Virus record (IMG/VR): IMGVR_UViG_3300030406_002796
Span: 1-52,397 of that record
From: a virus
Lineage: Duplodnaviria; Caudoviricetes
Strand: one strand, 5' to 3'
Length of the DNA: 52,397 nt
Shown here: positions 3,971 through 46,507 of the stretch, one piece after another
Position numbering within the stretch: position 1 is the stretch's first letter
Layout of the letters: every line of letters begins with the position of its first letter
The notes under the pieces: model-generated
Database searches by the model: none
The model's input: the letters and a program-made list of their open reading frames with translations, nothing else
Told to the model about the DNA's origin: nothing
Made by a program: the position numbers and the translations under genes

Positions 3971-3974
3971 ATAG

Positions 3975-4048
3975 TGATCGAGGTAGGAATCGAACCTACA
4001 CTCTACAGCTTAGAAGGCTGTTGCTTTATCCAGTTAAGCTACTCGACC
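3975..4048 (-). tRNA. tRNA-Arg(TCT)
   Basis: Full cloverleaf: acceptor GGTCGAG/CTCGATC, D-arm GCTT..AAGC with TGG, anticodon arm ACAGC-CTTCTAA-GCTGT, T-arm GTAGG-TTCGATT-CCTAC; no encoded CCA (CTA follows). AGA is the dominant Arg codon in the phage genes. Confidence 0.95.
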
Positions 4049-16402: not shown

Positions 16403-18203
16403 AATAGATGTAGGCGCGCCAGATTATAGAGAAGCAAATAGATTATTCTATATATTTTGGGAAGCTTGTAAAGCAGATAAAAGAAGTTACGGAATGTGTT
16501 ATTTAAAAAATAGACGTTCTGGTTTTTCATTTATGAGTTCAGCTGAAACTGTTAATTTAGCTACATTAGCTAGTGATAGTAGATTTGGTATATTATCTAA
16601 AACAGGTGCCGATGCAAAGAAAATGTTTACAGACAAAGTAGTACCGATTAGTATTAATTATCCTTTCTTCTTCAAGCCAATACAGGACGGTATGGACCGA
16701 CCAAAGTCCGAGCTCGCTTATAGGGTACCTGCTAAAAAGTTTACTCGTAAAAAAATACGTGAACGTGAAGAGATGGACGACGTTGAAGGTCTTGACACAA
16801 CTATAGACTGGAAAAATACAGGTGACAATAGTTATGATGGTGAAAAACTAAATCTATTAGTTCATGATGAAAGTGGTAAATGGGAAAGACCTGACAATAT
16901 AAAAAATAACTGGAGAGTTACAAAAACTTGTTTGCGATTAGGTAGTAGGATAGTAGGTAAATGTATGATGGGAAGTACATCTAATGCTTTAGATAAAGGA
17001 GGGGATAATTTTAAAAACTTATATTATAATTCAGATGTCACAAAACGAAACAGAAATGGACAAACTAAATCAGGACTTTATTCTTTGTTTATACCCATGG
17101 AGTGGAATTATGAAGGTTTCATTGATGGATATGGACAGCCTGTATTTAACGATCCTAGTGAACCAGCATTTGATCCCCACGGCATAGAGATAGATCAAGG
17201 TGTAATCGATCATTGGGAAAATGAAGCTGATGGTTTAAAAGAAGATCAAGATGCTTTAAATGAATTTTACCGTCAGTTTCCTAGAACAGAAGAACACGCG
17301 TTTAGAGATGAAACAAAAAATAGTTTATTTAATCTTATAAAGATATACGAACAAATAGATTATAACGAAGGTAATAGAAACTCTTCAGTAACTACGGTTG
17401 GTAACTTTCAATGGCTTAATGGGAAAAAAGATACGATGGTTGTTTTTAACCCAAATCCTAACGGTAGATTTAAGGTTAGTTGGGTGCCAAGTTCTAGATT
17501 ACAAAATAACGTTATTATTAAAAATGGCGTACGATATCCAGGTAATGAACACATGGGAGCTTTTGGCTGTGACTCATACGATATATCTGGAACAGTAGAT
17601 AAACGAGGTTCAAAAGGTGCTTTGCATGGCTTAACAAAGTTTTCAATGGAAGATGCGCCAGCAAATACTTTTTTCCTTGAATATATAGCAAAACCTCAAA
17701 CTGCTGAAATATTTTTTGAAGACGTTTTAATGGCATTAGTATTTTATGGAATGCCAATACTTGCTGAAAATAATAAACCAAGATTATTATACTATTTAAG
17801 AAGAAGAGGTTATAGAGGATTTAGTATGAACAGACCTGATAAAGTTTGGAATAAGTTATCAGTTGCAGAAAAGGAAGTAGGTGGTATACCAAACTCTAGT
17901 GAAGATATAAAGCAAGCTCATGCTGCTGCTATTGAAATGTATATCAATGACCATGTTGGATTATTACAAGACGGTACTTATGGTACTATGTATTTTAATG
18001 AAACTTTAAATGACTGGTCTAGGTTTGATATAAATAAAAGAACTAGGCACGATGCTTCAATAAGTTCTGGTTTAGCAATTATGGCTTGTAATAGACATTT
18101 ATATAGACCAAACCCTATTAAACAAAAACAACCATTAAATTTAACTATATCAAAATATAATAATTCTGGATTTTCATCTACGATAATTAAAAATAAAATA
18201 TGA
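16353..18203 (+). CDS. terL: terminase large subunit, ATPase + nuclease part
   Basis: LKNRRSGFS (Walker A-type), LLVHDESGKW (Walker B), GSTSN, FGCDSYD nuclease motif, HDASISSGLA; precedes portal. Confidence 0.9.
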   Translation: MASQPTGTHYMYLQWSKIDVGAPDYREANRLFYIFWEACKADKRSYGMCYLKNRRSGFSFMSSAETVNLATLASDSRFGILSKTGADAKKMFTDKVVPISINYPFFFKPIQDGMDRPKSELAYRVPAKKFTRKKIREREEMDDVEGLDTTIDWKNTGDNSYDGEKLNLLVHDESGKWERPDNIKNNWRVTKTCLRLGSRIVGKCMMGSTSNALDKGGDNFKNLYYNSDVTKRNRNGQTKSGLYSLFIPMEWNYEGFIDGYGQPVFNDPSEPAFDPHGIEIDQGVIDHWENEADGLKEDQDALNEFYRQFPRTEEHAFRDETKNSLFNLIKIYEQIDYNEGNRNSSVTTVGNFQWLNGKKDTMVVFNPNPNGRFKVSWVPSSRLQNNVIIKNGVRYPGNEHMGAFGCDSYDISGTVDKRGSKGALHGLTKFSMEDAPANTFFLEYIAKPQTAEIFFEDVLMALVFYGMPILAENNKPRLLYYLRRRGYRGFSMNRPDKVWNKLSVAEKEVGGIPNSSEDIKQAHAAAIEMYINDHVGLLQDGTYGTMYFNETLNDWSRFDINKRTRHDASISSGLAIMACNRHLYRPNPIKQKQPLNLTISKYNNSGFSSTIIKNKI

Positions 18204-21812: not shown

Positions 21813-23345
21813 ATGGCAATTACAAATGGAAATAATTTGAATAGTGTTCCTTCGCATCAGCAAATGACACTATCTACAAATTACTTAGATTTTACATCGG
21901 GCTCTAACGACTGGGCTCAACAATACTTGCCTGAACTTATGGAAAAAGAAGCTGAGGTTTTCGGACCGAGAACTATCTCAGGTTTCTTAGACAAAGTTGG
22001 GGCAGAAGAATCTATGTCTTCAGACCAAGTAGTTTGGTCGGAGCAAGGTAGATTACACTTATCTTATAAAGGTAAGGTAACTTCAGCAGCTGGCGGTACT
22101 GATTCATGTGCGCAAATACTAATTCAATTTGATATTGATGAAGCAGAAGGTAACAACTCTGGTATTAGTACTGGCGCTCTTGGAGCTTCAGCTTCACCAG
22201 CGTTTTTAAATCACGGTATTAGAGTTAACGACACTATTATAGTAGCTGATGCTACAAACGGTGTTGTTAAAATGATAGTTACTAAAGCTGACGCTGATAC
22301 AATTGAAGCTGCTACTTATAACACTGCGGCTGCGCTTTCTGGTACTACTACTGATAAACAAACAACTATATTAGTTTATGGTTCTGAATTTACAAAAGGT
22401 TCTAGATATAACAACGCTGACGGTTCATCTGGAGGTTCAGATTCTAGACCTTCTAACGAACCAGCTTTCAAAACTTTTACTAACAAGCCAATTATTATGA
22501 AAGACTACTTTGAAGTATCAGGATCTGATACAGGTAGAATCGGTTGGGTAGAAGTTGCTTCTGAAAGTGGACAATCAGGATATCTTTGGTATCTAAAAGC
22601 TGAGTCTGATACAAGAGCTAGATTCAATGACTACATTGAGATGGCAATGTTAGAAGCAGAAAAATTAGATGGTAGTGGTATAGCTGATACTGCTGGTAAT
22701 GTTTTAGATAGAGATCCTGTTGGTACTGAAGGTTTGTTTGCTGCTATTGAAGATAGAGGTAATTTAACTTCTGGTGTAACAGGTGTTAACGCTGCTACTG
22801 ATTTAGCAGAGTTTGACGCTATCTTAGCTGAGTTCGATAAGCAAGGTGCTATTGAAGAATACATGATGTTTATTAACAGAGCTACTAGTTTAGCTGTTGA
22901 TGATATGTTAGCTTCAATGAATTCTTACGGAGCTGGTGGTACTTCTTACGGAGTATTTGACAACGACGAAGATATGGCATTAAACTTAGGTTTCTCAGGA
23001 TTTAGAAGAGGTTCTTATGACTTCTACAAATCTGACTTTAGATACTTAAATGACAAAGCTACAAGAGGTGGAATTAACGATGCTGCTGGTTCTGAAGCAA
23101 TCAGAGGTGTTATGATTCCAGCTGGTGTTTCTACAGTTTATGACCAAACTATGGGTAAAAACTTGAAGAGACCTTTCTTACACGTTAGATATAGAGCTTC
23201 ACAAACAGACAATAGAAAAATGAAAACTTGGACTACTGGTTCTGTTGGTGCTGCTACATCAGCGTTAGATGCAATGCAACTACACTTCTTAACTGAAAGA
23301 TGTTTAGTTGTTCAAGGCGCTAACAACTTTATGTTAATGAAGTAA
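21813..23345 (+). CDS. major capsid protein
   Basis: 510 aa after scaffold; WAQQYLPEL, WSEQGRLH, GTEGLFAAIEDRGN, LGFSGFRRGSYDFYK; followed by terminator. Confidence 0.85.
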   Translation: MAITNGNNLNSVPSHQQMTLSTNYLDFTSGSNDWAQQYLPELMEKEAEVFGPRTISGFLDKVGAEESMSSDQVVWSEQGRLHLSYKGKVTSAAGGTDSCAQILIQFDIDEAEGNNSGISTGALGASASPAFLNHGIRVNDTIIVADATNGVVKMIVTKADADTIEAATYNTAAALSGTTTDKQTTILVYGSEFTKGSRYNNADGSSGGSDSRPSNEPAFKTFTNKPIIMKDYFEVSGSDTGRIGWVEVASESGQSGYLWYLKAESDTRARFNDYIEMAMLEAEKLDGSGIADTAGNVLDRDPVGTEGLFAAIEDRGNLTSGVTGVNAATDLAEFDAILAEFDKQGAIEEYMMFINRATSLAVDDMLASMNSYGAGGTSYGVFDNDEDMALNLGFSGFRRGSYDFYKSDFRYLNDKATRGGINDAAGSEAIRGVMIPAGVSTVYDQTMGKNLKRPFLHVRYRASQTDNRKMKTWTTGSVGAATSALDAMQLHFLTERCLVVQGANNFMLMK

Positions 23346-26160: not shown

Positions 26161-29100
26161 ATGGGAGAAATTAAACATGGTTTTACGGCTGGCAAGATGA
26201 ATAAAGATCTTGATGAGCGATTAGTTCAGCAAGGTGAATATAGAGATGCCATGAATATTCAGGTAAGAACCACATCTGGTGATGGTGATGGTACAGGCAT
26301 TGGTGACTCTGGTGTAGTACAAAACTTACAAGGTAATATTGAAGTTGGCTCTGCTACTGGTGATGTGTTATCTTCGGCTTTTGCAGACTCTGAATTTACT
26401 TGTATAGGTTCTATTGCTAATGAAAAATCAGACTGTGCTTACTTTCTTTTTACTACAGATGTTTTACCTTTAATAACTACAGCAGAAGAATTAGTTAGAA
26501 TTGATACTATAATAGAACATAATGTTTCAAGTGGTGCTAACACACCAGTAGTTGTAGACAGATGGGCGTTAAGAACTTTAACGTCTAATGTATGGAGCTC
26601 AGCACCAACTGGTACTATTACTACATTTGAAGCTATATCTACTCTTCCAGCGAAAATAAGGGAAAACATGACTATCACTTTCTACGATAATGCTAATCCT
26701 ACTGATATTATAACTGTTAAAATAAAAAAGATAGACGGTAACACTATTCACTTATACGAACAAGCTACTGCTACTTGGAGTAACTTTACCCACGCAAGAT
26801 TTCAACACCCAAGAGTTTTAAACTTTTCTAAGAAAACTTTAATAAACGGTATTAATATAATTGATGATTTATTATTTTTTACCGATGGTAAGCATGAACC
26901 TAAAAAAATAAATATTACTAAATGTAAATCAGGCACTGACGCCAGTGGCGTTTTACATACTAAATTACTTATACAAGATCCTACTGTAGATCAATTAACA
27001 AATGCTGGTGATGCAGAACTAGTAGGATTAAATGCTGATTTGCTAGAAGAGCACGTTACCGTATTAAGACCTGCTCCTAAAACACCACCAACTATAGAGA
27101 CTGAAACTAGAGATGACGCTGAGTTACAGTTTAATTTAGATGATTTTTTCGTAGCCAACGGTGATGCAGAAATAAACGCTTGGGGTGAAGATCCATCTGC
27201 TGGCGATATGGTTTTAATAGGGACAAATTTTGATAACGACGGTAACGAAATTACTTACGGCTCTGTCACTCCTAATTTAAGTCAAGTACCTTTTCAAACA
27301 GGTGATATATTTACTGTTACACAAGAAGATGTAGAGGAAGGTTATCCTGAAGTAAATTTTAAAGTTAAATTTTTAGGATATTTTGCTGGATATCCAACCG
27401 CTGAACCTCAAGACGTACCAACAGATTTAATAAAAGTTCAAATATTAACAGAGCCAAACTACAATATAAGTAGTAGCATGCAATCTTGGTCGTTTAAACT
27501 TTCAAGCAAACAAGATTCTAAATTTGAATTAAAGTTTCCAAGGTTTGGTTACAGATATAAATACGATGACGGTGAATACTCTGCGTTTTCACCTTGGTCT
27601 GAATTAGCTTTTGACCCTGGTTTATTTGATTACGATACAGTTAAAGGTTATAACTTAGGTATGGTTAATACCATAAAGAAGATAATAGTAAAAGACTTTA
27701 TACCTTACTATACTGAAAGACCTTTAAATGTTGTAGAGGTTGACTTGTTATATAAGACTACTGAGTCACCAAATATATACACAGTCAAAACAATTAAAAA
27801 AATAAAAGATGGCGAGTGGGAATTATTTACTCCTGATGGTAATTTAGATAGTAATGACTCTACACAAAACTCTTTAGCTACCGGCGCGTTAGAAATAACT
27901 ACAGAGGCTATATACAAAACATTACCTTCAACTCAATTATTAAGAACTTTTGATAATGTACCTAGACGCGCTCTTGCTCAAGAAATAACAGGTAGTAGAA
28001 TATTGTATGGTAATTACACACAAGGGTTTGATATAAAATATCCAGTAGGTTTAGAACAAAATGTTACTAGTGAAACGGTTGAAGGGCAACCTAAAAAATC
28101 TCTTAAGTCTATAAGAGATTACAAAGTAGGTATGGTGTTTGGGGATATATATGGAAGAGAAACTCCAGTTATAGCATCTAATAAGATATCTGAAGTTGCT
28201 AACAATTTAGGTGGAACAGATTACTTAGCGCAAACAGATGATTTAACCGTACCAAAAGAGCTATGTGCAAAGTCTAATAGATTATCAGTAAAGCAAATAT
28301 GGGACAAACCTGGCTTACCTGCTGGAGACCCAACTGAGATGACATGGATGGAATACGTAAAATACTACGTGAAAGAAACATCTAATGAATATTATAATTT
28401 AGTTTTAGATAGATGGTATAAAGCTAAAGAAGAAAATAACATTTGGCTTTCTTTTCCTTCGGCCGATAGAAACAAAGTAGATCTTGAAACCTATTTGTAT
28501 TTAAAAAAGACACATGGTAACGACGAGGCTGTATTAGAAAAAGCTAGATATAAAATAATAGATATAAAAAACGAAGCTCCTGATTTTATAAAAACAGATA
28601 CAAGGAACTTTGGTTTAATAAATATAACAGGTGATCCAACCGCAGATGATTATGAATCCCCAATAGGCGCTGCTGATCCTCAAATAAACGAACCTTCTTT
28701 GCTAACTTCGCCTAGTAATACTAGAATAGCTGTTCCAGGTAATTCATGGAATGGTTTTTTAAATTTATATGGTGAAAATAAAAGAGGGCAATTGTTTGTA
28801 AGAGTAGTTGGTAGAACAGAAAACCCAGCTTCTGGCGCTGTGTTTAAACAATTAAATAGTGGAGACTTTAAAAAAGTTACACACCATTACGTTGATGGTG
28901 CTGGCGACGGTGTTGTTATATACAATGAGTCATTTTTACAATCAGCAGATATGGTTGAAAGATTTGCGCAAGCAAACTTTGATATAGATGGTAACTGTGC
29001 ATCTCAATGTTTACAGTATTTTTTTGAGTTCAAAGAAGAGGTTGTAGAAAACAAACCTGAGTTTGATGGTAGATTCTTTGTGTTAATAGAAAAAGACGAA

Positions 29101-32100
29101 ACCACTCAAGATCAAATAGAAATAACTTCTGATAATGAAGTACAATTTACTGAAATAGATTTAATAACTTTAAATTACGTAGATTCTCAACAATACAACC
29201 CAGCTCAGCAAGGTCCTTATTCTAGACTAGCTACTCCAACAGCTGGTGAACCTTCGGTATATAATGCTACCACTGGTTTGTTTAGAGAAGAAGATGTCGG
29301 TGGTGAGGTGCTAACTGATTTTACTCAACCTCATGAATGGTGGGGATTTGGTAGGTTTTCAAATAATCCTCAGCCATACCCTGGATATTGGAGCGCTTCA
29401 ACTACTAATGCTGTTACATCAAACTATCCTAGTGGAACTCTTGGCGACGCTGGAAATTGGCAATATGATTCTAAACAAGTTCATTTTTTTGCATTAGGTT
29501 GTAGAGCTGCTTCAGAAGGAATGAACGTAGATCTCGATGGTGATGATTACAGTGAGACGACTTATCATTTTGGTTATCAAAATATAACAGCTGGAGATGA
29601 CGGCCAAGCTACAGTTAAATACCCTGGCACAGCTAACTACGGTGGTATCACTTTAGACTACTGGGCCACTTATAAAAGATTTCATAGATCATCAGGTAAT
29701 TACAGCGAAACTGATGACAAGGGTTATGCTAATCCGCATTTAGTATTTTTAGATGGCGCTAGAGCTAATCAATATCAGCTAATGGAATTTGGAACTAACG
29801 AGACTGAAACTAACGAACAAGGTGTTCAGTCTATAAATGATTCAAATATAATATTAAGTAACGATAGTATAGCTGAAGGTGGTATATACCCTACTGATGG
29901 TAGTTACCCGTATGCTCCTTCTATATACAACTATAAGCCAACAGCGTTAGATCAAGGGCATGCCGACGAAGGTACTTTAGGTAGAATGGCTTTAAGTAAA
30001 ATAGGTGATTGGGGAGTTGGCGCAGGTGGTAGTGGCGCGCCCGCTATATATAATTATTTTGCTGGAGCTTCTGCAGCTGGTACTTACTTTTCTTTTAAAG
30101 ATGATAAATCTGATATGTCTGATCCAGACTTTCCAGATGGCAAACCTTATGTTTATAAAGTAATTACAGTTCACCCTGATGACGATGAAATTAGTTTACC
30201 GGTTCAAAAATCAAAACCACTAGCTAATAGAAACTTTGGTTATCAATTCAACCATGGTCAGTACGATGATAGCGACTCTGGTTGTGATAATAACGGTGGC
30301 GTTAACTTTGTAAGAAGTAGACAGTGGGCGCCAACTACTAGCGTTCCTAATGATGATGGCGCTTACTTTTTAAACTTTGGTGGAGAAAATGCTAATTGCG
30401 TAGATGAAGAAGGTAATGAAGTTAACTGTTTTGAAGGACTGTATAGTAACTTTGCTTTATCAGAAATATTCGACTTTGAAACGCTTGATAGTACTACACA
30501 TATTAGAACTGGTATGTATAGGAATACAGGGGGATTTTGCAATAATAGATTTCATAGAATATGCGGTCAATGTGACTCATCTGTTTCAACTGGTCCTTAT
30601 GAAAGTGGAACTGTATGTAGAAGAGAGTCTATAAGATTTGAATTTAGAAGAATAAACCCAGTAACTGGAGGTGTAACAAATGAAGGTATAGTACCAGATG
30701 AGTTTGATCCAAGAGGTTGGGCTAAGCACGATGGAACACATGGTGGTATAAGAATATCAATATTACAACCTGGTGTAGTAGCTGGTGGTAAAGAAGTTAA
30801 AATCGAAGAAGATAGAGCTGTTTGGGAAACAGAACCAAAAGAAGATGTTGGCTTAGATTTATATTATGAGGCTACGCACGCTATACCAATGAAATTAAAA
30901 AAAGGTAATGTATTATCTTACGCTCCTTTAAAATCTAAAGTTTTAGTAGAAAGAGTTGATCCAGCTACAGGCGTTACGGTTATAGATAATCTTAATGTAG
31001 CTAATTATAATGGTCAGCAGTATGTAGATGTTAGTGTAGGCGGGGCAGAGTATTTACAAGACGATGTTATAATAAAAGTTGTATCAAGAAGCGTCACGCT
31101 TATAGACTTGAATGGTAATGCGGACTTTGGGTTACACCAATACAATATAGGTATAGGTGATATACTTATATTCCAGCATAGCAGTGGCATGCAAACAAGA
31201 ACTGTAGTCGAAGACTATTATGTAGCACCAACTGGTGGTGAGAACTGTACATATGTTCCACAAACTACTTACACTACTACGTTTACTTACGACGCTGATG
31301 CTGATACTATATCACTAGCAAATGCTACAAATATTGTAACAGGTATGAACATTAGTGGTGAAGGTTTACCTGATGGTTTATTTGTATCAGGTAATCCTAA
31401 TGGAACTGAAATTCAAGTTGTTGGGTGGCCAACGTCAGCATTCTCTTGGTTTGGAGGTAATAGTAGCACACTTAGTAATATAGAATTTAAAAGCCCTACG
31501 GGCTATTATAAAGTAAATAAAGATGTTTACAAATACAAAGTTGATCTTGGCTGGCATAATTGTTATTCATTTGGTAATGGAGTTGAGTCTGATAGAATAA
31601 GAGATGATTTTAACGCACCAACAATCGATAATGGTGTTAAAGTTTCTACTACTATAGATGAGTATGGAGAAGAAAACAGAACAAGTGGTTTGATATTTTC
31701 AGGTTTATATAATACTACATCTGGAGTAAATGATTTAAATGAGTTTAATATGGGTGAAAAAATAATTAAGGATTTAAACCCGGACTATGGTACTATACAA
31801 GCTTTAAAAACTAGAGATACTAATGTTGTTGTTTTTTGTGAAGATAAAATATTAAAAGTAATTGCTAATAAAGAAGCTGTGTTTTTAGCAGATGGTAACC
31901 CTCAATTAACCGCTACTGATAGAGTGTTAGGTCAAGTGTCTACATTCTTAGGTGATTACGGTATATCAAGAAATCCAGAATCATTAGCTAAAGATAATTA
32001 TAGATTATATTGCACTGACTCACAAAGAGGCGCGGTACTTAGAATATCAATGGACGGTATAACACCTATATCAAATGTTGGTATGAGAACTTGGTTTAGA

Positions 32101-32814
32101 GAAAATATAGTAGGTTCTAGTGGGTATGGCACTCAAATGATAGGAACTTTTGATATGGTAAAAGGTGAATATAACTTAGGTATTAGTAACCAAACAATGG
32201 TAGCATTTAACGAAGGTTCTAAAGGTTGGGTTAGTTTTAGATCTTTTATACCAGATCAAGGAGTATCAGTTTCTGGAAAATACTTAACAACTAAAAGAGG
32301 TAAAATTTATAAACACCACGTGGACACTTTTGATCCAGATACTGGAGAAATAAATAATAGAAATTTATTTTATGGCGCTACTACTTTAGAGCCTGAAGCT
32401 GAATCTACAATTACCGTAATGTTTAATGATGTACCTGGCCAGGTTAAGTCTTTTAAAGCTATGAACTATGAAGGCACACAGGCTAGAGTAGATCAATTTA
32501 TATCTGAAACAATAGATGGTTTATCTTATACAGATGGCGAGTATTATAACTTAATTAATAAAAAAGGCTGGTGGGTAAGTGATGTCAATACAGATTTACA
32601 AGAAGGTAAAATAACTTGGTTTATTGATAAAGAAAACAAATGGTTTAATAATATTAGCGGTGTCGCTACTTCGCTTGAAAATTTAGATACTAGTGAGTTT
32701 ACAGTGCAAGGTATCGGTAGCCCTACATTAGTAACACTACCTCCTCCTACTGATGGGGATCCTACTAACACGTTTACTCTAACTATAAAGAATAAAACAA
32801 ATAATGATTTATAA
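26161..32814 (+). CDS. large tail protein (stabilization/nozzle-like)
   Basis: 2217 aa; GKMNKDLDERL...GEYRDAMNI N-terminus, CYSFGNGVESDRIRDDFN, YGISRNPES, KGWVSF. Confidence 0.7.
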   Translation: MGEIKHGFTAGKMNKDLDERLVQQGEYRDAMNIQVRTTSGDGDGTGIGDSGVVQNLQGNIEVGSATGDVLSSAFADSEFTCIGSIANEKSDCAYFLFTTDVLPLITTAEELVRIDTIIEHNVSSGANTPVVVDRWALRTLTSNVWSSAPTGTITTFEAISTLPAKIRENMTITFYDNANPTDIITVKIKKIDGNTIHLYEQATATWSNFTHARFQHPRVLNFSKKTLINGINIIDDLLFFTDGKHEPKKINITKCKSGTDASGVLHTKLLIQDPTVDQLTNAGDAELVGLNADLLEEHVTVLRPAPKTPPTIETETRDDAELQFNLDDFFVANGDAEINAWGEDPSAGDMVLIGTNFDNDGNEITYGSVTPNLSQVPFQTGDIFTVTQEDVEEGYPEVNFKVKFLGYFAGYPTAEPQDVPTDLIKVQILTEPNYNISSSMQSWSFKLSSKQDSKFELKFPRFGYRYKYDDGEYSAFSPWSELAFDPGLFDYDTVKGYNLGMVNTIKKIIVKDFIPYYTERPLNVVEVDLLYKTTESPNIYTVKTIKKIKDGEWELFTPDGNLDSNDSTQNSLATGALEITTEAIYKTLPSTQLLRTFDNVPRRALAQEITGSRILYGNYTQGFDIKYPVGLEQNVTSETVEGQPKKSLKSIRDYKVGMVFGDIYGRETPVIASNKISEVANNLGGTDYLAQTDDLTVPKELCAKSNRLSVKQIWDKPGLPAGDPTEMTWMEYVKYYVKETSNEYYNLVLDRWYKAKEENNIWLSFPSADRNKVDLETYLYLKKTHGNDEAVLEKARYKIIDIKNEAPDFIKTDTRNFGLINITGDPTADDYESPIGAADPQINEPSLLTSPSNTRIAVPGNSWNGFLNLYGENKRGQLFVRVVGRTENPASGAVFKQLNSGDFKKVTHHYVDGAGDGVVIYNESFLQSADMVERFAQANFDIDGNCASQCLQYFFEFKEEVVENKPEFDGRFFVLIEKDETTQDQIEITSDNEVQFTEIDLITLNYVDSQQYNPAQQGPYSRLATPTAGEPSVYNATTGLFREEDVGGEVLTDFTQPHEWWGFGRFSNNPQPYPGYWSASTTNAVTSNYPSGTLGDAGNWQYDSKQVHFFALGCRAASEGMNVDLDGDDYSETTYHFGYQNITAGDDGQATVKYPGTANYGGITLDYWATYKRFHRSSGNYSETDDKGYANPHLVFLDGARANQYQLMEFGTNETETNEQGVQSINDSNIILSNDSIAEGGIYPTDGSYPYAPSIYNYKPTALDQGHADEGTLGRMALSKIGDWGVGAGGSGAPAIYNYFAGASAAGTYFSFKDDKSDMSDPDFPDGKPYVYKVITVHPDDDEISLPVQKSKPLANRNFGYQFNHGQYDDSDSGCDNNGGVNFVRSRQWAPTTSVPNDDGAYFLNFGGENANCVDEEGNEVNCFEGLYSNFALSEIFDFETLDSTTHIRTGMYRNTGGFCNNRFHRICGQCDSSVSTGPYESGTVCRRESIRFEFRRINPVTGGVTNEGIVPDEFDPRGWAKHDGTHGGIRISILQPGVVAGGKEVKIEEDRAVWETEPKEDVGLDLYYEATHAIPMKLKKGNVLSYAPLKSKVLVERVDPATGVTVIDNLNVANYNGQQYVDVSVGGAEYLQDDVIIKVVSRSVTLIDLNGNADFGLHQYNIGIGDILIFQHSSGMQTRTVVEDYYVAPTGGENCTYVPQTTYTTTFTYDADADTISLANATNIVTGMNISGEGLPDGLFVSGNPNGTEIQVVGWPTSAFSWFGGNSSTLSNIEFKSPTGYYKVNKDVYKYKVDLGWHNCYSFGNGVESDRIRDDFNAPTIDNGVKVSTTIDEYGEENRTSGLIFSGLYNTTSGVNDLNEFNMGEKIIKDLNPDYGTIQALKTRDTNVVVFCEDKILKVIANKEAVFLADGNPQLTATDRVLGQVSTFLGDYGISRNPESLAKDNYRLYCTDSQRGAVLRISMDGITPISNVGMRTWFRENIVGSSGYGTQMIGTFDMVKGEYNLGISNQTMVAFNEGSKGWVSFRSFIPDQGVSVSGKYLTTKRGKIYKHHVDTFDPDTGEINNRNLFYGATTLEPEAESTITVMFNDVPGQVKSFKAMNYEGTQARVDQFISETIDGLSYTDGEYYNLINKKGWWVSDVNTDLQEGKITWFIDKENKWFNNISGVATSLENLDTSEFTVQGIGSPTLVTLPPPTDGDPTNTFTLTIKNKTNNDL

Positions 32815-38473: not shown

Positions 38474-41400
38474 ATGAAAGAATATATATTAAATGGAAAG
38501 ACTGTAAAAGTCTCTTCAGAAAACGAACAAGCATTTATTAAAGCAAATCCTAATGCTAAAATAAAGGAAACAAGCTGGTGGCGAGGAGAAGAAGGTTGGA
38601 TTCCAGATGAACTAGAGTTCTGGAAAAGAAAAGAGGAGTCGCCGGGAAAGTCAATAGGGGCAAGTCAGCCCCAAGAAAATCAAACAGAAAATACGGATTC
38701 ATCTTCGGCAACTGGTTTGTTGGGGTTTGTAAAATATAAACTTGGTGAAAAGTTTGTTAAGGTAGCTCCTGCTAATACTAAAGCATTTGAAAAGGAAAAT
38801 CCAGAAGCTACGCAAGCAACCTTTCAAAAAGGAACTATATTAGATAAAATAACAGATGATAAAGATACTATACCACAAGATAAAGGTTATCTTTCAGAAT
38901 TAGTATTATCATTAAAGCAAGGTAAAAGAGGTTTAACTACTGATGGCGCCTTTGATTTAATGCGTCATGGTAAAAATATAACTGACGAAAAGTTACAAGA
39001 GTGGGTTAGAGATGTAGAAAAATATGGTGGCGTGCCACAAACTCAAGCTCAAATAGAATATAATAGAAAACTAGAAGAGAATGGTGGTGGAATATGGGGT
39101 CACATAAAAGTAATGAGTGATCCTAGAAATACGATGTTAAGTTTAGAGTGGGTACCTCAACAAATACTAGGTTCTCTATCTACTATGGCTACGTCTCTTT
39201 ATGGATCTGATGAAGTAAGAGTTTCTGCGGCTGGTGGTGCAGGAGCGGGTGCTGTGGCTACAAGAAGTCCTTATGGCGGTGTAGCTGGTGCTTATAGTGC
39301 TGGTATAGGTGCTATGGAAGCAGGTCTAGAATTTACTGAGTTATTAAAAGAAGAGTTAGCTGAAAAGGGTGTAGATCCAAATGATTATGATAATGGTTTT
39401 ACAGCTGACAATATTAGATCTTTGATATTAGAAGATCCAGCTTCTTTAGAAAAAATTAGAAAAAAAGCTCTAGCAAGAGGTATGTCTATGGCGGTAGTAG
39501 AAGCTATGACGTTTGGCGTAGCGAGAGGTACTGGTAAATTAGTGTTAGATAAAACAATGTCTAAAAGTAAAACAGCGCTTGCTGTTACTGGAACAGAGAT
39601 GGTTGGTGGTGCTGCTAGTGAAGCCGCTGGACAATTTGCGTCTGGAGGTACAGCAGAGCCTGGCGGGTTTAGTGTTCAAAAAGGTATTGAAAACTTAGAT
39701 AGTGGAGATATTTTTATTGAAGGTATATTAGAAGGGCCAACAGCTGTTTTAAATACTGACATATTATTTTCTGGATCAAGAGGTGAAAAGTATACTATTA
39801 ATGGAAGTGAGGTAACTAAAAAAAGAGTTGTTAGCATACTTCAAGATAATGATCTTACAACTCAAGAAAAAGCAAAAATTCTTTCTAATATAGAAATAAC
39901 TAACGATAAAACTCTACAGTCTTATTTAGATAAAGCTTTAAGTGATATAAATATAGAAATGAATATAGACGCTAGAGTTGTTGATAGAGCTGATAGAAAA
40001 CGTTTGGTTGAGCTAGAAAATCAAAGAAGAAAAGCAGAAGCTGATACTAAAAAAACTGGAGTGTTTTCTGTTTCAGATGCAGATAAAAAACTAAATGATA
40101 TAAATTTAGCTATAGAAGAAATACTAGCTCCATATCAAAATCAAATAGATAAAAATCTTTCAGATGTACAAATACAAAGAGATCAAGCAGCTGAGTTTAA
40201 TCAGAACATGTCCGAAAGAATTTTTAAAAGTAATTTAGAGTTTGCTAAAAAACATAGTGCCTTGTATGGTTTAAATGTAAATGATACTTTAACTAGAGAG
40301 GAAATACGTAAAGCCTATGGAGATGAGGCTGCTGATGCAGATGGATTTATTGATGGTGATCAAATAATTATAAATAGCGAGGTAGCTCAGTTTACAGATG
40401 CTGTTAATGTTGGTAACCACGAGTTGTTGCATGGTATACTTAGAAAAGAAATGAAGAACAACCCAAACCAATTTGCCAATATAAGGCAAGAGTTGTCTCA
40501 ACAAATAGGTAATCAATGGCAGTATGTAGAAAACAGAGTTAAAGAAGCTGGATATACAGAGCAGTATATGATAGAAAATCCTGATGAGTGGATTACGTTA
40601 ACTTCAGATGCTATAGCTAACGGTCAGATAACCTATAGTGAAAGTGTGTTCCAACCATTAATGGATTTTATTTTACCTATACTTAGGGCTGCTGGATTTA
40701 AGAAAATAAAGTTTGATAGTGGTAAAGATGTATTTGAGTTCTTAAAAGAATACAATAGAAGTATACACAAGGGCTCGCTGAGTAGTGGTATAGTTAGTGC
40801 TACACAAGGAGTAACGCAAGTTGAAGGAGGACCTAAGTTTGCTAAGTCTAATTTAGCTGGTATGTTAGATCGATTTGATGGTAACACTAGACGTATGATA
40901 AATCAAACTGTTGCTAGACAAGCTAATGGCGAACCAGTTGCGTTTAGAGAAGATAAATTTGGTAATTATATATCTAGTGTAGATTCAGAATTTGGACAAG
41001 AAGTAATGCCTATAGTTGAAAGTATAACAAAAAGATTATTTGATCCTATACCTACTAACATAGCAGATCAAGCCTCTGTATCAAGAGGTAGTTATCAATC
41101 AGATTTAGTAAATGAAGCTGCTACGTTAGTTAACAACGAGTATAATGGTAGACAACCACTTGATCAATTTGTTAGTAACAGATTAAATTTAAGAGCTCAA
41201 AGTTTAGCTCGTAGATTAGGTATAAAATCTGTAGAAGAAAGTTCTAAAGAAACAAGAATAAATCAAGGAGACTCTCAGCTACAAGTACAAGATAGAGACC
41301 AAACAGATACAGCGTTTGAAGAAAAAGATCTTTCACCACAACAGCAACGTAAAGATTTAAAAGAAGATACTAGACAAATAAACTCAGGTGAGTTTGTTAA

Positions 41401-44400
41401 AGATATATATATGTTTGACAACGAAACAACCATTGAGCCTTTGCGACAAACATTAAACGAAATTAATTACGACGCTAGCGGTTCTTACGAGCAGTTAGCT
41501 GCTGATATGGTTAGTCAACAAAACCCAGCAGAAAGTTCTAAAAACAAAGTTAAACCTACTGGTGTTTTATATCCCGCTCATAAATTACTATCAGAGTCTT
41601 ATTGGCAAGTTAATCCTAATTCTATAATAGCTAAACCTCAAACTCTAACGGTTCCAGAGTCTAATAATATTAGAACAAAAATAATAGAAGCTATAAAAAA
41701 TACTAGAACAAAAAAAGGTTTATCACCGGTAAAAAGAGTTGTAAGCGCTATATTACCAAAAACTAATTTAAATCCTAACACATTAACTTCTATAGGGCTA
41801 AGCACTAAAACATTAGAAGTATTTTATTTAGACAGAAATATAGAAACTGGTGAAACAACTAGACCTAAAAATTTAAAAGCTCAAGCGCTTAATATAAATA
41901 ACATGGCTGACTCTGATATACTAATGAACATTGGTATTACAAATGAGTTAACATTAATGCCTCATGATAGAAAATTTAATCCTATATTAAAAAGTTTTGT
42001 AAAGCAAGGTAATGCTTTAGTTATAAATCAAGAGATAAGAAGCTTAATAAAAGATCAAGCCGCTAACATTGGTGTTGGTAGACCAGATATATTATTTAGT
42101 AAGAGTGTTAAAAATTCTTATAGAAAAAGTCCTGCTGATTTAGCTAATGATTATAATATAAAATTAGTACCTGGTTCTTCTAAAACAAGAGCCAAAAACA
42201 GTATGTACAACGAAACCGAAACTTGGGCGCAGGCTAGAGACAGAGTGCTTAGAGAGTATTTAACCGAGTACCCTCAGTACAGAGTATTAATGCAAAAAGG
42301 TCTATGTGCTAGTAGTAAAAGAACTATGTATACTAGCGTTAAAGAGTTTAATGAAGCTGCTGGCCCTATGCCACCAGGTGTTGATATTATTAACGCTCTT
42401 AAAACTGAATATAATGTTAAAAGAAGGTTTACTCCAAAAGCTTTTAAAAAATTTAAAACAGAAAAATTTAAACAAGGTGAGGCAAAAAAATTAGAAACTT
42501 TGAAAGATTTTTTTGTGTCAATACAAGAATTTTCAGAGTCTAAAAAAATTGATGGAAAAGTAAGCCCTGATATGTTTTTGTTTTTAGAAATGTTAAGAGA
42601 TAGTTCGACTGGTGGCCAGGCTCATATTATTAGAATATTAGCTCCAGTTAAATTCTATACAGTTGACCAAAGAACTAGAAAACCAATATACGATAAAGAG
42701 GTTGTAGAAGAACATACTGATCCTCAAAATCAAATAGGTACAGCTTTAATGGACGCTGCTATAAACGGAAATGTAAACGAAGTGTTTGATGTTATAGGTG
42801 GTTCTTATATGCAAGGTTCTTTATTAGAAACGTCTGACAACTTGATAGCTAACAAAGAGAAAAACCCTAACAAAAGAGATTTAACTAGAGATATGCCAGA
42901 TTTTTATTTTGATGAGGTAATACCTAGAATAAAAAGTGGTGAACTAAAGTTACCAGATGGTATGGCATCTGTAGTTAGGATGGCGATACAAGGTGTAAAC
43001 TTAAATGAGCTAATGCTTATTGATTCTAATCAAACTATAGCAGAGTTTTTTAATGTTGGTATTGATACTAAAAATATGACTGATGCTCAAATAGAATATT
43101 TAATACCTTATCAAAATGACTTAATAATAAAACAGTTGACTACTAAAACGATGACCAAAACAAAGGCTCGTAATTCTATAAATAAAATATCTAAAACAGT
43201 TTACAAAAAAAATGCTAAACAACTACAATCTAGTTTAGATTCAAGTAAAGCTATTATTAATACATATAAATATAGTAAGTCTGGTAAAACAAGAGGTATG
43301 TCAACATTTGATTTTGATGATACATTAGGTTTTACTAAGTCTGGTGTTAGAGCTAATATACCTAACAACGATGGTCTACCTAAACCAGAGCGTAAAGTTA
43401 TATTCTTAGCTGGTGGTGCTGGTAGTGGTAAAGGTAACGTAATAAGAAAACTTAATTTAGAAAAAGACGGTTTTAAAATTGTAAACTCAGATATATCTTT
43501 AGAGTGGTTAAAGAAAAACTCAGGACTACCTGCTGATATGCGAGACTTAACTAAAGAACAAAGAAGCACATTAGGTAAGCTAGGAGCTCAAGCTAGAAAA
43601 ATAGCTAGAGGTAAAATGATGAAGTACCAGGGTAACGCAAATGGAGTTGTTGTCGATGGTACTGGTGGATCTGTTAGAACAATGCAGAAGTTAGTAGATG
43701 AATTTAAATCTAAGGGATATGATGTTAGCATGATATTTGTAGATACATCATTAGATGTAGCCTTACAACGTAACAGGGCTAGACAAGAAAGATCGTTGTT
43801 AGATAAAATAGTTATACGTAATCATGAAGCTGTTCAAGGAAATAAATCTTCTTTTAAAGAAATGTTTGGCGATAGATTTATGGAAGTTAATACAGATAAC
43901 TTAACGCAACAAAGCCCCATGCCGACTGATTTAGTTAACAATGTTACTGACTTTGTTTCTGGTTATGAAAGACGTAGATTAGATGCTGAAGAGTTTGCCG
44001 CAGAAGGAGATGCTATATTAGAACAAGGTGGTGAGTTTGATTTTTCAGAGTTTAATGATGTTGTTGACGGAACGCCAGGTCCTTTACTAGAAAAAGCTAG
44101 ACAAAGGGCAGCTAAGTATGGAACGAAAGACATGTTTGTTTTAACTGCTAGACCTCAAGCTGCCGCACCAGCGATAAAACAATTTTTAAAATCACAAGGT
44201 CTAGATATACCATTAAAAAATATAACTGGCTTAGCTAACAGCTCTGGTAATGCTAAGGCTCAATGGATGTTAGGTAAATTTGCAGAAGGCTATAACGATA
44301 TGTACTTTGTAGATGATGCTTTACAAAATGTTGAAGCCGTTAAACAGGTGTTAGATCAATTAGATATTAAGTCAGATGTTGTGCAAGCTAAAAGAAAGTT

Positions 44401-46507
44401 TAGTAAATCAGCTAGTCAAAACTTTAATACAATACTAGAAGAGTCTCAAGGGACTAACAGGAACAGAACGTTCTCTTATCAAGAAGCTAAACGTTTAGGT
44501 AAAAACAAAGGTTGGTGGAGAATATTTGTACCACCTTCGGCTGAAGACTATAAAGGTTTATTGTATAGATTTTTAGGTACAGGTCGTCAAGGTGAGTTAC
44601 ACATGAAGTATTTAAAAATTAAACTGCTAGACCCGTTTGCTAAAGGTATAAGATCGTGGAATATATATAAGCAAGAGATGGTAAATGAATATGCTCAATT
44701 AAAAAAGAATCTACCTAACGTTGCTAAAGGTTTAACCGCTAAAGTAGGTGAGACTGGTTTTACTACAGATGACGCAATAAGAGTTTACTTGTGGGATAAA
44801 AACGGATTTAATATTCCAGGTATTGATGATGCTACAAAACAAGAGCTAATTGATTTTGTAAACAGATACGGTAACGTTAAAGCTTTTGCTGATACTTTAA
44901 GTAGAATAACTAAGACACAAGAAGGTTATGTTGCACCAACTGAAAACTGGTCACTTGGTAGTATATCAACTGATTTAAATAATGTCGTTAACAAAGTTGG
45001 TAGAAAACAATTTTTAGCAGAGTACTTAGCTAATTCAGAAGCTATATTTACTCCTGAAAATATGAATAAGATAGAGGCTTTATATGGTACTACATTTAGA
45101 GAAGCTTTAGAGAATATAATGTATCGTATGGAAAACGGTGGTAACAGAAGAGTTAGTACTGATAGAAATGTAAATAGAATGCTTAATTGGATTAACGGTT
45201 CTATTGGCGCTATTATGTTTTTTAACATGAGATCTGCATTACTACAAACTATATCTACGGTTAACTTTATAAACTGGAGTGATAATAATATATTTAAAGC
45301 ATCAGCCGCATTTGCTAATCAACCTCAATTTTGGACGGACTTTGCTACACTATTTAACTCACCACAATTAAAACAAAGAAGAAAAGGTATACAAATAGAT
45401 GTATCTGCTTCAGAATTATCTAGAGCTTTTTCTGATGGTAAAGGCACACCTCAATCTGTTATTAGCTGGTTATTAGAAAAAGGTTTCACCCCAACACAAG
45501 TTGCGGATAGCTTTGCTATTTCTTTTGGTGGCGCTAGTTTTTATAGAAACAGACTTAACAAATATAAAAAACAAGGATTTTCAGAGCAACAAGCTAATGA
45601 AAAGGCTATGTTAGATTTTCAAGAGATAGCTGAAGAAACACAACAGTCTTCAAGAGAAGATTTAATATCACAGCAACAGGCTAGTGTATTAGGTAGATTA
45701 ATACTAGCGTTTCAAAACGTTACAATGCAATACACTCGTTTAACAAAGAAAGCTTTATCTGATTTAATAAATGGTAGGGGGGATATGAAAACAAATATAT
45801 CTAAGATACTATATTATGGTATGGTACAAAATTTAATATTTGCTAGCTTACAATCGGCCTTGGCATTTGTTATTTGGGGAGACGATCAAGAAGACATAGA
45901 AGATAAAACTCTTAGAACAGCTAATAGCGCTTTAGATTCTTTTTTACGTGGTACTGGTATATACGGAGCAATAGTATCTACTGTAAAAAATACTATTATA
46001 CAGGCTGAAAAACAAAAGAAGAAAAGCTGGGGTAGAGAAGATGGTAGAACTTTATTAGAGTTAACTAATATATCTCCACCTATAGGTAGTAAGTTAAGAA
46101 AAATATACAACGCTATTAAAACAGAGCAGTATAACAAAGGTGTATCTGAAGAATTAGGACTTAGAATAGAAAACCCAACATTACATAAATGGGCTAGTAT
46201 AATTGAAGCAACTACAAATATACCAACACAAAGATTAATTAAGAAAGCTAATAACTTAGAAGAAGCTATAACAGGCAATCACTTAACATGGCAACGAATA
46301 GCCTTAGGTCTTGGCTGGAATAGATGGGATATTGGTGTTAAGGACGAAGAGCTTGAAGCTGCTAAAAGTGCCGCTAAGTCTAAAAATAAAAGTAATAAGA
46401 AAAGCAATAAGTCTAGTAGTAAAAGATGCTCTGCTATAAAGAAAAGTGGTGGAAGATGTAAGAACAATACTAGAAATAAAAGCGGTAGATGTTATGCTCA
46501 CCAATAA
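38474..46507 (+). CDS. giant polyvalent virion protein (zincin, sigma-like, HAD phosphatase with nested P-loop kinase, C-terminal Zn finger)
   Basis: HELLH (aa 649), FDFDDTL (aa ~1613), GGAGSGKG (aa ~1647), LTAR, FVDD, terminal C-x9-C-x10-C-x2-H. Confidence 0.75.
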   Translation: MKEYILNGKTVKVSSENEQAFIKANPNAKIKETSWWRGEEGWIPDELEFWKRKEESPGKSIGASQPQENQTENTDSSSATGLLGFVKYKLGEKFVKVAPANTKAFEKENPEATQATFQKGTILDKITDDKDTIPQDKGYLSELVLSLKQGKRGLTTDGAFDLMRHGKNITDEKLQEWVRDVEKYGGVPQTQAQIEYNRKLEENGGGIWGHIKVMSDPRNTMLSLEWVPQQILGSLSTMATSLYGSDEVRVSAAGGAGAGAVATRSPYGGVAGAYSAGIGAMEAGLEFTELLKEELAEKGVDPNDYDNGFTADNIRSLILEDPASLEKIRKKALARGMSMAVVEAMTFGVARGTGKLVLDKTMSKSKTALAVTGTEMVGGAASEAAGQFASGGTAEPGGFSVQKGIENLDSGDIFIEGILEGPTAVLNTDILFSGSRGEKYTINGSEVTKKRVVSILQDNDLTTQEKAKILSNIEITNDKTLQSYLDKALSDINIEMNIDARVVDRADRKRLVELENQRRKAEADTKKTGVFSVSDADKKLNDINLAIEEILAPYQNQIDKNLSDVQIQRDQAAEFNQNMSERIFKSNLEFAKKHSALYGLNVNDTLTREEIRKAYGDEAADADGFIDGDQIIINSEVAQFTDAVNVGNHELLHGILRKEMKNNPNQFANIRQELSQQIGNQWQYVENRVKEAGYTEQYMIENPDEWITLTSDAIANGQITYSESVFQPLMDFILPILRAAGFKKIKFDSGKDVFEFLKEYNRSIHKGSLSSGIVSATQGVTQVEGGPKFAKSNLAGMLDRFDGNTRRMINQTVARQANGEPVAFREDKFGNYISSVDSEFGQEVMPIVESITKRLFDPIPTNIADQASVSRGSYQSDLVNEAATLVNNEYNGRQPLDQFVSNRLNLRAQSLARRLGIKSVEESSKETRINQGDSQLQVQDRDQTDTAFEEKDLSPQQQRKDLKEDTRQINSGEFVKDIYMFDNETTIEPLRQTLNEINYDASGSYEQLAADMVSQQNPAESSKNKVKPTGVLYPAHKLLSESYWQVNPNSIIAKPQTLTVPESNNIRTKIIEAIKNTRTKKGLSPVKRVVSAILPKTNLNPNTLTSIGLSTKTLEVFYLDRNIETGETTRPKNLKAQALNINNMADSDILMNIGITNELTLMPHDRKFNPILKSFVKQGNALVINQEIRSLIKDQAANIGVGRPDILFSKSVKNSYRKSPADLANDYNIKLVPGSSKTRAKNSMYNETETWAQARDRVLREYLTEYPQYRVLMQKGLCASSKRTMYTSVKEFNEAAGPMPPGVDIINALKTEYNVKRRFTPKAFKKFKTEKFKQGEAKKLETLKDFFVSIQEFSESKKIDGKVSPDMFLFLEMLRDSSTGGQAHIIRILAPVKFYTVDQRTRKPIYDKEVVEEHTDPQNQIGTALMDAAINGNVNEVFDVIGGSYMQGSLLETSDNLIANKEKNPNKRDLTRDMPDFYFDEVIPRIKSGELKLPDGMASVVRMAIQGVNLNELMLIDSNQTIAEFFNVGIDTKNMTDAQIEYLIPYQNDLIIKQLTTKTMTKTKARNSINKISKTVYKKNAKQLQSSLDSSKAIINTYKYSKSGKTRGMSTFDFDDTLGFTKSGVRANIPNNDGLPKPERKVIFLAGGAGSGKGNVIRKLNLEKDGFKIVNSDISLEWLKKNSGLPADMRDLTKEQRSTLGKLGAQARKIARGKMMKYQGNANGVVVDGTGGSVRTMQKLVDEFKSKGYDVSMIFVDTSLDVALQRNRARQERSLLDKIVIRNHEAVQGNKSSFKEMFGDRFMEVNTDNLTQQSPMPTDLVNNVTDFVSGYERRRLDAEEFAAEGDAILEQGGEFDFSEFNDVVDGTPGPLLEKARQRAAKYGTKDMFVLTARPQAAAPAIKQFLKSQGLDIPLKNITGLANSSGNAKAQWMLGKFAEGYNDMYFVDDALQNVEAVKQVLDQLDIKSDVVQAKRKFSKSASQNFNTILEESQGTNRNRTFSYQEAKRLGKNKGWWRIFVPPSAEDYKGLLYRFLGTGRQGELHMKYLKIKLLDPFAKGIRSWNIYKQEMVNEYAQLKKNLPNVAKGLTAKVGETGFTTDDAIRVYLWDKNGFNIPGIDDATKQELIDFVNRYGNVKAFADTLSRITKTQEGYVAPTENWSLGSISTDLNNVVNKVGRKQFLAEYLANSEAIFTPENMNKIEALYGTTFREALENIMYRMENGGNRRVSTDRNVNRMLNWINGSIGAIMFFNMRSALLQTISTVNFINWSDNNIFKASAAFANQPQFWTDFATLFNSPQLKQRRKGIQIDVSASELSRAFSDGKGTPQSVISWLLEKGFTPTQVADSFAISFGGASFYRNRLNKYKKQGFSEQQANEKAMLDFQEIAEETQQSSREDLISQQQASVLGRLILAFQNVTMQYTRLTKKALSDLINGRGDMKTNISKILYYGMVQNLIFASLQSALAFVIWGDDQEDIEDKTLRTANSALDSFLRGTGIYGAIVSTVKNTIIQAEKQKKKSWGREDGRTLLELTNISPPIGSKLRKIYNAIKTEQYNKGVSEELGLRIENPTLHKWASIIEATTNIPTQRLIKKANNLEEAITGNHLTWQRIALGLGWNRWDIGVKDEELEAAKSAAKSKNKSNKKSNKSSSKRCSAIKKSGGRCKNNTRNKSGRCYAHQ

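Follow-up and report, generated by a model that had tools for sequence, protein, structure and literature searches.

A P-loop kinase nested within a HAD phosphatase in a giant polyvalent-type protein of an uncultured marine phage

The stretch of DNA described here (referred to as the window) is the 52,397-base IMG/VR record IMGVR_UViG_3300030406_002796, which is linear, was rated 93% complete by CheckV and belongs to an uncultured marine phage of flavobacterial type. The region of interest, 43271-44400, was found by means of an open reading frame (ORF) list and translation to lie inside a single ORF at 38474-46507 (+), which encodes a giant protein of 2677 amino acids (aa), P0001. Within this protein a complete P-loop kinase is nested inside a HAD phosphatase. 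This arrangement had been proposed in an earlier note on the same DNA and can now be stated with high confidence, being confirmed both by relatives with and without the insert and by an AlphaFold model. The module is a new topological variant of the Pnkp-like kinase/phosphatase pair, carried by a phage polyvalent-type protein, and it is real, conserved and abundant.

The eight motifs on which the earlier note had relied were all recovered in one plus-strand frame within the giant ORF. HAD motif I, FDFDDTL, begins at aa 1612 (nucleotide (nt) 43307) and is followed by the kinase motifs, namely the P-loop GAGSGKG (aa 1648), VNSD (aa 1670), VVVDGT (aa 1725) and the lid ALQRNRARQER (aa 1763), and then by the remaining HAD motifs FVLTAR (aa 1888, nt 44135), KAQW (aa 1928, nt 44255) and YFVDD (aa 1944, nt 44303). 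Two of the positions first assigned required correction, FVLTAR having been placed at 44141 and YFVDD at 44312, the latter being the first Asp of its DD pair. A 376-aa excerpt of the module, P0002, served as query and for modelling, and residue numbers given below refer to it. The N-terminal piece of the HAD (residues 9-31; 43295..43363, +) consists of strand S1, motif I (DxDxT, with D14 at nt 43310 and D16 at nt 43316) and flap strand 1. The inserted kinase has a length of about 200 residues (~32-231; 43364..43963, +) and holds K54 (nt 43430), D74 after strand 2 (nt 43490), DGTG at 129-132 and the lid residues R167, N168, R171, E173 and R174. The C-terminal HAD piece (residues 232-372; 43964..44386, +) supplies flap strand 2 and motifs II-IV, represented by T292-A293-R294 (nt 44144), K329 (nt 44255) and D348-D349 (nt 44312), together with a small conserved helical/beta element (FDFSEF...GP).

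Pfam analysis of P0002 assigned residues 39-175 to both AAA_33 (42.1 bits against a cut-off of 27, E 1.3e-10) and Zeta_toxin (PF06414; 38.4 bits against 22.3, E 1.1e-9), so that the likeness of the kinase to the zeta-toxin/AAA_33 group, already remarked upon, is upheld above the gathering cut-offs of both models. For the HAD, the curated Pfam models gave DUF2608 alone, below threshold (17.0 bits against a cut-off of 22.6, E 0.0045); this model, which presumably belongs to the HAD clan, was also matched below threshold in 12 of 33 family members, with a best E of 7.7e-5. An NCBIfam scan of the module returned kinase matches only, all far below threshold.

Conservation was computed over 61 nested modules. 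All four HAD motifs are present (D14-x-D16-x-T18, T292, K329 and D348-D349), with D14, D16, T292-A293-R294, K329 and D348-D349 invariant in 61 of 61, while T18 is Thr in 58 and Val in three. In the kinase, G48, G51, G53, K54, N72, D74, D129-G130-T131-G132, R167, N168, R171, E173 and R174 are likewise invariant in all 61. The invariance of both sets of residues indicates that both active sites are under selection. P-loop kinases that act on hydroxyl groups, among them polynucleotide kinase (PNK), zeta toxin, chloramphenicol phosphotransferase and gluconate kinase, are marked by an invariant Asp after strand 2. The kinase has the Walker A Lys (K54) and the Asp after strand 2 (D74) that characterize T4-type Pnkp kinases, and hhalign pairs these two residues with T4 Pnkp positions 15 and 35, which we take to be its essential Lys and general-base Asp.

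The AlphaFold model of the nested module was obtained with a mean predicted local distance difference test score (pLDDT) of 88.5 and a predicted template modelling score (pTM) of 0.69. According to DSSP, the elements of the model run in the order S1 (9-14), flap strand 1 (26-31), kinase (42-231), flap strand 2 (232-237) and the rest of the HAD core. When its HAD was superposed with VIA-align on the T4 Pnkp 3'-phosphatase (5uj0_B), a Z of 12.8 and a root-mean-square deviation (rmsd) of 2.5 Å were obtained over 127 of 142 residues. The superposition extends from model residue 6 to 375, which indicates that the two HAD halves form one domain. In this check of aa 1600-1976 of the giant protein, the split HAD motifs are therefore predicted to assemble into one Rossmannoid domain. 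The model of a relative that has no kinase, P0104 (mean pLDDT 82.3), shows a simple flap hairpin with strands at 36-41 and 44-49, from which it appears that the kinase replaces a two-residue hairpin turn. Both models contain a HAD Rossmannoid core with a flap hairpin after S1. Their comparison supports an insertion site at the tip of the flap beta-hairpin after motif I, that is, the C1-cap site, and agrees with the cap position that the earlier note had put forward for the kinase.

In a structural search of 48,161 chains with the kinase-less HAD model, carried out independently of Foldseek, the first three matches were 5uj0_B (Z 12.7, rmsd 2.7, 128 residues aligned), Pnkp1 4xrp_A (Z 12.3) and full-length T4 Pnkp 1ltq_A (Z 11.8). 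Generic HADs begin at Z 11.4, the lead of the Pnkp phosphatases being small (put at 1.3-1.8 Z units). A total of 112 PDB chains reached a Z of at least 8, and the 50 listed were almost all HAD-fold enzymes. For the kinase of the nested model the best match was the Clostridium thermocellum polynucleotide kinase 4gp6_A (Z 16.3), followed by the uncharacterised kinase 2rhm and O-phosphoseryl-tRNA kinase (PSTK) (both Z 15.8), T4 Pnk (Z 14.3-14.5; 14.3 for 1ly1_A), Kti12 (Z 13.7), UMP kinase (Z 13.6), the zeta toxin 1gvn_B (Z 13.4) and chloramphenicol phosphotransferase (Z 13.1). When the whole module was submitted to Foldseek, Pnkp1 and T4 Pnkp were the top matches (E ~2e-7), with 353-374 columns covering both domains; a different arrangement of the domains accounts for the very high rmsd of 19-24 Å. 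The description of the module as PNKP-like is supported at the level of fold only, T4 Pnkp and Pnkp1 ranking at the top for both domains; by sequence, the kinase aligns over 35 columns and the HAD profile match is not significant. A PDB sequence search with the module alone gave weak adenylate-kinase matches (best E 0.0015) and Pnkp1 at E 0.27, and profiles from two family alignments gave noise or nothing in the same database, probably owing to dilution of the profiles by flanking columns.

A HMMER search with P0002 retrieved 2614 metagenomic cluster representatives at E<=1e-3, of which 806 were at E<=1e-30. The best 150 of the 2614 were re-mapped locally, and the architecture counts given here cover these. 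The full nested module was found in 60, while 58 have the same HAD uninterrupted and without a kinase, query residues ~1-33 being followed within a few residues by ~234-375. The gap coincides exactly with the position of the kinase, and this comparison of homologues with and without the insert, which had been suggested as a check, bears out the nesting. Five relatives combine an intact HAD with a kinase elsewhere, either in tandem after the HAD (P0045) or ~800-1000 residues upstream (P0065, P0067, P0070 and P0072); one, P0082, has the HAD C-half and then the kinase; five carry another or a degenerate insert in the same gap, and 21 are fragments. In an alignment of the 33 short members the kinase sits between the strands TKSGVRxxIPN and RRLxAEEF, which are joined by a short turn in the members without it. 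Within this large protein family, which is viral almost throughout, the HAD is thus the fixed element and the kinase a movable cassette. P0001 from ~aa 1832 to its end shares 38-63% identity with 15 of 15 long homologues by BLASTP, the conserved C-terminal block of the giant protein lying at 44399..46504 (+). Judged from these alignments, the HAD and the ~700 residues C-terminal to it form the constant backbone, whether the kinase is present or absent.

On a maximum-likelihood tree computed by a quick search from 133 rows and 144 columns of the HAD C-half, nested and kinase-less forms are interleaved, the nested label needing seven changes, of which at least two are forced by well-supported branches. 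One 31-row clade (99% support) contains no nested form and is kinase-less except for two members with a downstream kinase. In the kinase tree (71 rows, among which P0083 is a truncated nested form that the script labelled 'elsewhere'), tandem and dispersed kinases fall inside the nested-kinase clade, and the SH-like approximate likelihood ratio test (SH-aLRT) gives 100% support for the separation of this clade from the kinases that Pelagibacter phage HTVC008M and the Methylophilales Melnitz phages encode as stand-alone proteins. The two trees together indicate that the kinase cassette has both entered and left the flap slot. An origin of the nested form as a circularly permuted T4-like Pnkp was also considered and rejected, as uninterrupted HADs are equally common and interleaved on the HAD tree and the kinase is movable.

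The slot is also occupied by other domains. P0135 (aa ~1675-1807), P0143 (~1919-2055) and P0145 (~2307-2439) share in the same gap a domain of ~130 residues, mutually 28-38% identical. When scanned alone, each insert gave one sub-threshold match to ART-PolyVal (PF18760; E 0.007, 0.027 and 0.032), a weak indication from sequence that the insert may resemble this ADP-ribosyltransferase of polyvalent proteins. Two further inserts in the slot, in P0142 (aa ~2593-2679, 87 residues) and P0070 (aa ~2134-2274, 141 residues), are unrelated and of no recognisable family; the kinase of P0070 is the one found ~1000 residues upstream. A Pfam scan of three long relatives with alternative inserts gave nothing at E<=0.01. 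In P0086 (aa ~1902-2017) the slot beside an intact HAD C-half still contains a shortened remnant of the kinase that lacks the P-loop, a hint that the insert may also serve as a structural cap.

Nearly all members of the family are viral and marine, with 229 stretches in IMG/VR on contigs of 11.8-72 kb. Of these loci 80 were kept; in 62 the match extends over the kinase, and in 18 it is confined to the HAD C-half. In prokaryotes, searched as one genome each of 185,579 species, only three loci were found, all on contigs of metagenome-assembled genomes. Among 50,697 isolate phage records, tblastn with the module and with the whole of P0001 gave matches to the kinase domain only, in nine records, and no relative of the HAD or of the backbone; megablast against the isolate phages gave nothing. 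Source names among 120 listed relatives include 'predicted kinase', 'ATP-binding protein', 'shikimate kinase', 'chloramphenicol 3-O-phosphotransferase' and 'hypothetical', none of the 120 has a precomputed HAD-family Pfam domain, and the nearest viral entry in UniProt, an 83%-identical relative, bears the automatic name 'UDP-N-acetylglucosamine kinase'. As the annotation names the kinase only, the phosphatase has gone unannotated throughout the family. Among stand-alone kinases, the closest relative (40% identity) is encoded in Methylophilales phage Melnitz-3 (1450-2118) and is followed by a gene for an NT5C-type HAD 5'-nucleotidase (2222-2749; 25.7 bits against a cut-off of 24.8), an independent pairing of kinase and HAD in a myophage. 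In HTVC008M the gene upstream of the stand-alone kinase was considered as a HAD partner and rejected, as it is not a HAD.

The giant ORF sits in a late/structural gene block. Upstream of it, matches to PHROG families identified a portal gene (18200-20578), a gene for a capsid-type 'virion structural protein' (21813-23345) and a second giant ORF of 2217 aa at 26161-32814 (+), also a 'virion structural protein' (PHROG 14478, E 8e-113). The portal protein shares 40-50% identity with its counterparts in Flavobacterium, Cellulophaga, Maribacter and Tenacibaculum podophages, and the neighbours of the giant ORF are syntenic in 35-46 of 80 related viral loci. Within P0001 an HExxH motif (HELLH) occurs at aa 649-653 (40418-40432, +) in a region, aa ~618-780, that is kept in several long homologues; this region gave no Pfam match and may be a zincin-type peptidase of the kind known from polyvalent proteins. 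The Lys/Ser-rich C-terminal tail (46420-46504, +) ends in a motif containing Cys and His, and DUF5763 (PF19067) occurs in related clusters and some relatives. The atlas neighbours of the C-terminal block are all viral hypothetical proteins, with DUF5763 in 11-27% of cluster members. Elsewhere in the window a GroEL-type chaperonin is encoded at 10129-11694 (+) (Cpn60_TCP1, E 3e-55, a nearly full-length match), and a tRNA-Arg with anticodon TCT at 3974-4048 (-) is the only tRNA detected in the contig. Among 20 other ORFs of the window scanned with Pfam the chaperonin alone was recognised, so the neighbours give no functional clue.

Both T4 Pnkp (PseT; 1ltq, 2ia5, 5uj0) and Capnocytophaga Pnkp1 (4xrp), the latter part of the Pnkp1/Rnl/Hen1 RNA-repair complex, likewise unite a P-loop kinase and a DxDxT HAD in one polypeptide. 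The T4 enzyme, however, has ~300 aa and its kinase precedes the HAD in tandem, whereas the present module follows the order HAD (S1 and flap strand 1), kinase, HAD (rest) and is embedded in a protein of 2677 aa. Nor is there an RNA ligase gene nearby, while T4 pseT lies close to rnlA. The zeta toxin/PezT UDP-N-acetylglucosamine (UDP-GlcNAc) kinases and the AAA_33 clade are represented by both Pfam matches, by 1gvn_B among the fold matches and in the public names of close relatives, which follow this assignment. Those toxins occur with an antitoxin partner of the epsilon/PezA type, but here the kinase lies inside a phosphatase, the fold scores favour polynucleotide kinases and no antitoxin-like gene was recognised among the neighbours of the giant ORF covered by the PHROG and Pfam scans. 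The P-type ATPases, which are C1-cap HADs, resemble the module in having a separate nucleotide-binding domain inserted in the middle of the flap hairpin of the HAD core; their insert is the N domain and they possess a membrane domain, whereas the present module has in this place a P-loop kinase that brings its own catalytic Asp, and there is no membrane domain.

P0001 also resembles the polyvalent proteins, as described in the main text of Iyer et al. (2017, PMC5512222), in being a giant multi-domain protein, in this case located in a phage late module. Such proteins are known to include zeta-like kinases and ADP-ribosyltransferase domains (Iyer et al., 2017), and P0001 likewise brings together several unrelated enzymatic domains (kinase, HAD and HExxH region) in one giant polypeptide of a virion gene block, with the ART-PolyVal-like domain appearing in relatives. 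The domains of polyvalent proteins stand in series, while here one domain is set within another. Literature searches turned up no account of a kinase inserted into the flap of a HAD, nor of a polyvalent protein that contains a HAD; the word 'phosphatase' is absent from the main text of Iyer et al. (2017), whose supplementary architecture lists might hold such an entry.

Our tentatively preferred interpretation, to which we give somewhat less than an even chance when the anatomy and delivery are included in the statement, is that the module is a Pnkp-like 5'-kinase/3'-phosphatase which heals nucleic acid ends and is packed in the capsid and injected with the DNA. It is the best supported one because both folds point first to Pnkp, both chemistries are intact and the two domains occur together in three arrangements. 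The kinase would phosphorylate 5'-OH ends using ATP, with K54 in the P-loop and D74 as general base, and the HAD would remove 3'-phosphates through a phospho-Asp14 intermediate, by which broken RNA or DNA ends would become 5'-P/3'-OH ends that a ligase can seal. Packed in the capsid, the protein would reach the host cell together with the DNA, in the way put forward for polyvalent proteins, so that the healing activity would be present before phage gene expression. Such delivery is inferred from the late-module position, the polyvalent-protein character of P0001 and the argument of Iyer et al. (2017), in their main text, that polyvalent proteins are injected with DNA.

A number of observations weigh against end healing. 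The structural preference for PNK over PSTK, UMP kinase and zeta toxin is modest in the model, and at the level of sequence kinship is weak, hhalign giving a probability of 79% over the 35 kinase columns shared with T4 Pnkp and 4.8% (E 0.0084) for a profile of 61 kinase-less HAD domains against T4 Pnkp, with motifs I and IV in register. In T4 Pnk an Arg three residues after the catalytic Asp presumably holds the 3'-phosphate of the substrate; the corresponding position of P0002, L77 (Leu in 56 and Ile in five of the 61 modules), is non-basic, and the T4 alignment stops before it. The 93%-complete contig gave no match to the RNA ligase family PF09414, and RtcB reached 11.9 bits, below its cut-off. 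The latter is a match to the C-terminal part of RtcB (E 0.0027) in a 102-aa frame at 3524-3700 (-) and probably arose by chance. Among relatives that are at least 90% complete, PF09414 was found in four of 12 nested-type and three of five kinase-less records, and is thus not associated with the kinase. Since 58 of the 150 relatives have no kinase, the HAD must have a use of its own, and as isolate phages contain no homologue of the backbone, there is no virion proteomics that could be transferred to P0001. Finally, readings of the zeta type and the nucleotidase type lie only a few Z units or E-value decades behind.

The latter readings combine in the possible, though doubtful, alternative that the module is a small-molecule effector, in which a zeta/AvrRxo1-like kinase acting on UDP-GlcNAc or NAD and a class B/C or e(P4)-like HAD acting on mononucleotides disturb the cell-wall precursor, NAD or signalling-nucleotide pools of the host at entry. 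Several further points against end healing belong here. Zeta_toxin exceeds its cut-off in P0002 and matches 21 of the 33 family members, with scores almost equal to those of AAA_33, and besides 1gvn_B the fold matches include PezT (2p5t_B, Z 12.7) and AvrRxo1 (4z8q_A, Z 12.4). For the kinase-less HAD, the leading Foldseek matches are acid phosphatases of classes C and B (2i33, e(P4) including its NMN/AMP complexes, and AphA; E 6e-5 to 1e-3), enzymes which act on mononucleotides. The kinase and NT5C-type neighbour in Melnitz would fit a role in nucleotide pools, the automatic UniProt name of the 83%-identical relative is that of a UDP-GlcNAc kinase, and zeta-like kinases of polyvalent proteins have been proposed to weaken the wall (Iyer et al., 2017, main text). 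However, polynucleotide and tRNA kinases stand ~3 Z units above zeta toxin, the search independent of Foldseek places Pnkp phosphatases first for the HAD, and the Melnitz NT5C protein has no specific similarity to the HAD of this family (hhalign probability 0.07%). In addition, the kinase-less HAD has a minimal cap only. Minimal caps are typical of HADs that act on macromolecules. A different substrate, either phage DNA (through a base kinase of the 5-hydroxymethyldeoxyuridine (5-hmdU) hypermodification type) or host or phage proteins, with action late in infection or in the capsid and perhaps no injection at all, is improbable. It would accommodate the weak matches of five of the 33 members to the 5-hmdU DNA kinase model HMUDK_HMUD1 (best E 0.01), the presence of the capless protein phosphatases MDP-1 (1u7p/1u7o) and CTDNEP1 (8ujl) among the fold matches and the lack of evidence for virion packaging from isolate phages, in which tblastn found no backbone homologue; but the HMUDK matches are far below any threshold, end-processing enzymes score better by fold, and no other hypermodification genes were recognised among the 20 window ORFs scanned with Pfam.

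The position of the kinase at the C1-cap site raises the further idea of a phospho-relay or coupled-site enzyme, in which the kinase, placed like the N domain of P-type ATPases, would pass phosphate on to the HAD active site or to whatever substrate is bound there, giving a phosphotransferase- or mutase-like machine in place of two independent enzymes. A HAD review cites the P-type ATPases as its example of a C1 cap with an alpha+beta fold, P domains of P-type ATPases are among the HAD fold matches (6lcp_A, Z 10.0; 2voy_I, Z 9.4), and the P-loop-less remnant of P0086 at the same site suggests a structural role. We nevertheless hold such a relay to be very improbable, as the invariance of D74, an Asp of the kind that typically serves hydroxyl kinases as general base, agrees with an ordinary kinase that acts on an acceptor of its own, and as the occurrence of the same cassette in tandem or ~1000 residues away in relatives argues that the kinase need not lie close to the HAD site; how the two domains are oriented to each other is also poorly defined in the model, as seen from its pTM. 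That the nesting is an artefact, through an assembly chimera or a frame error, or that one of the enzymes is dead, was considered since the HAD is invisible to Pfam. No point in favour of it was found, and it is hardly credible given that the nested order recurs in 60 of 150 independent cluster representatives, that it is also present in 62 of the 80 IMG/VR loci kept and that 61 modules agree in every catalytic residue of the two domains.

A broader proposal builds on the range of occupants of the slot, namely a PNK-like kinase, an ART-PolyVal-like domain and at least two unrelated inserts. The flap hairpin may be a swappable slot that accepts whole catalytic domains as a 'cap', with the HAD core as a docking scaffold for composite effectors, and the two sites of the kinase-capped form might then act on one bound substrate, either in coupled end healing or in a relay like that of P-type ATPases. 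Enzyme-as-cap HADs would in that case be a new design principle for delivered phage enzymes. Taken as a whole this proposal is speculative and rather unlikely to be right.

The family is large in marine viral metagenomes, as seen from the 806 cluster representatives at E<=1e-30 and the 229 IMG/VR stretches. A catalytically intact enzyme as a C1 cap, with other enzymes in the same slot, extends the repertoire of HAD caps, and the relatives with and without the kinase provide a natural set of variants for how caps set specificity. If the module both heals ends and enters with the DNA, it would equip the phage in advance to repair the damage done by host nucleases that cleave tRNA, mRNA or the incoming DNA, and this repair would act before phage gene expression, unlike the Pnkp/Rnl system of T4, which has to be expressed.

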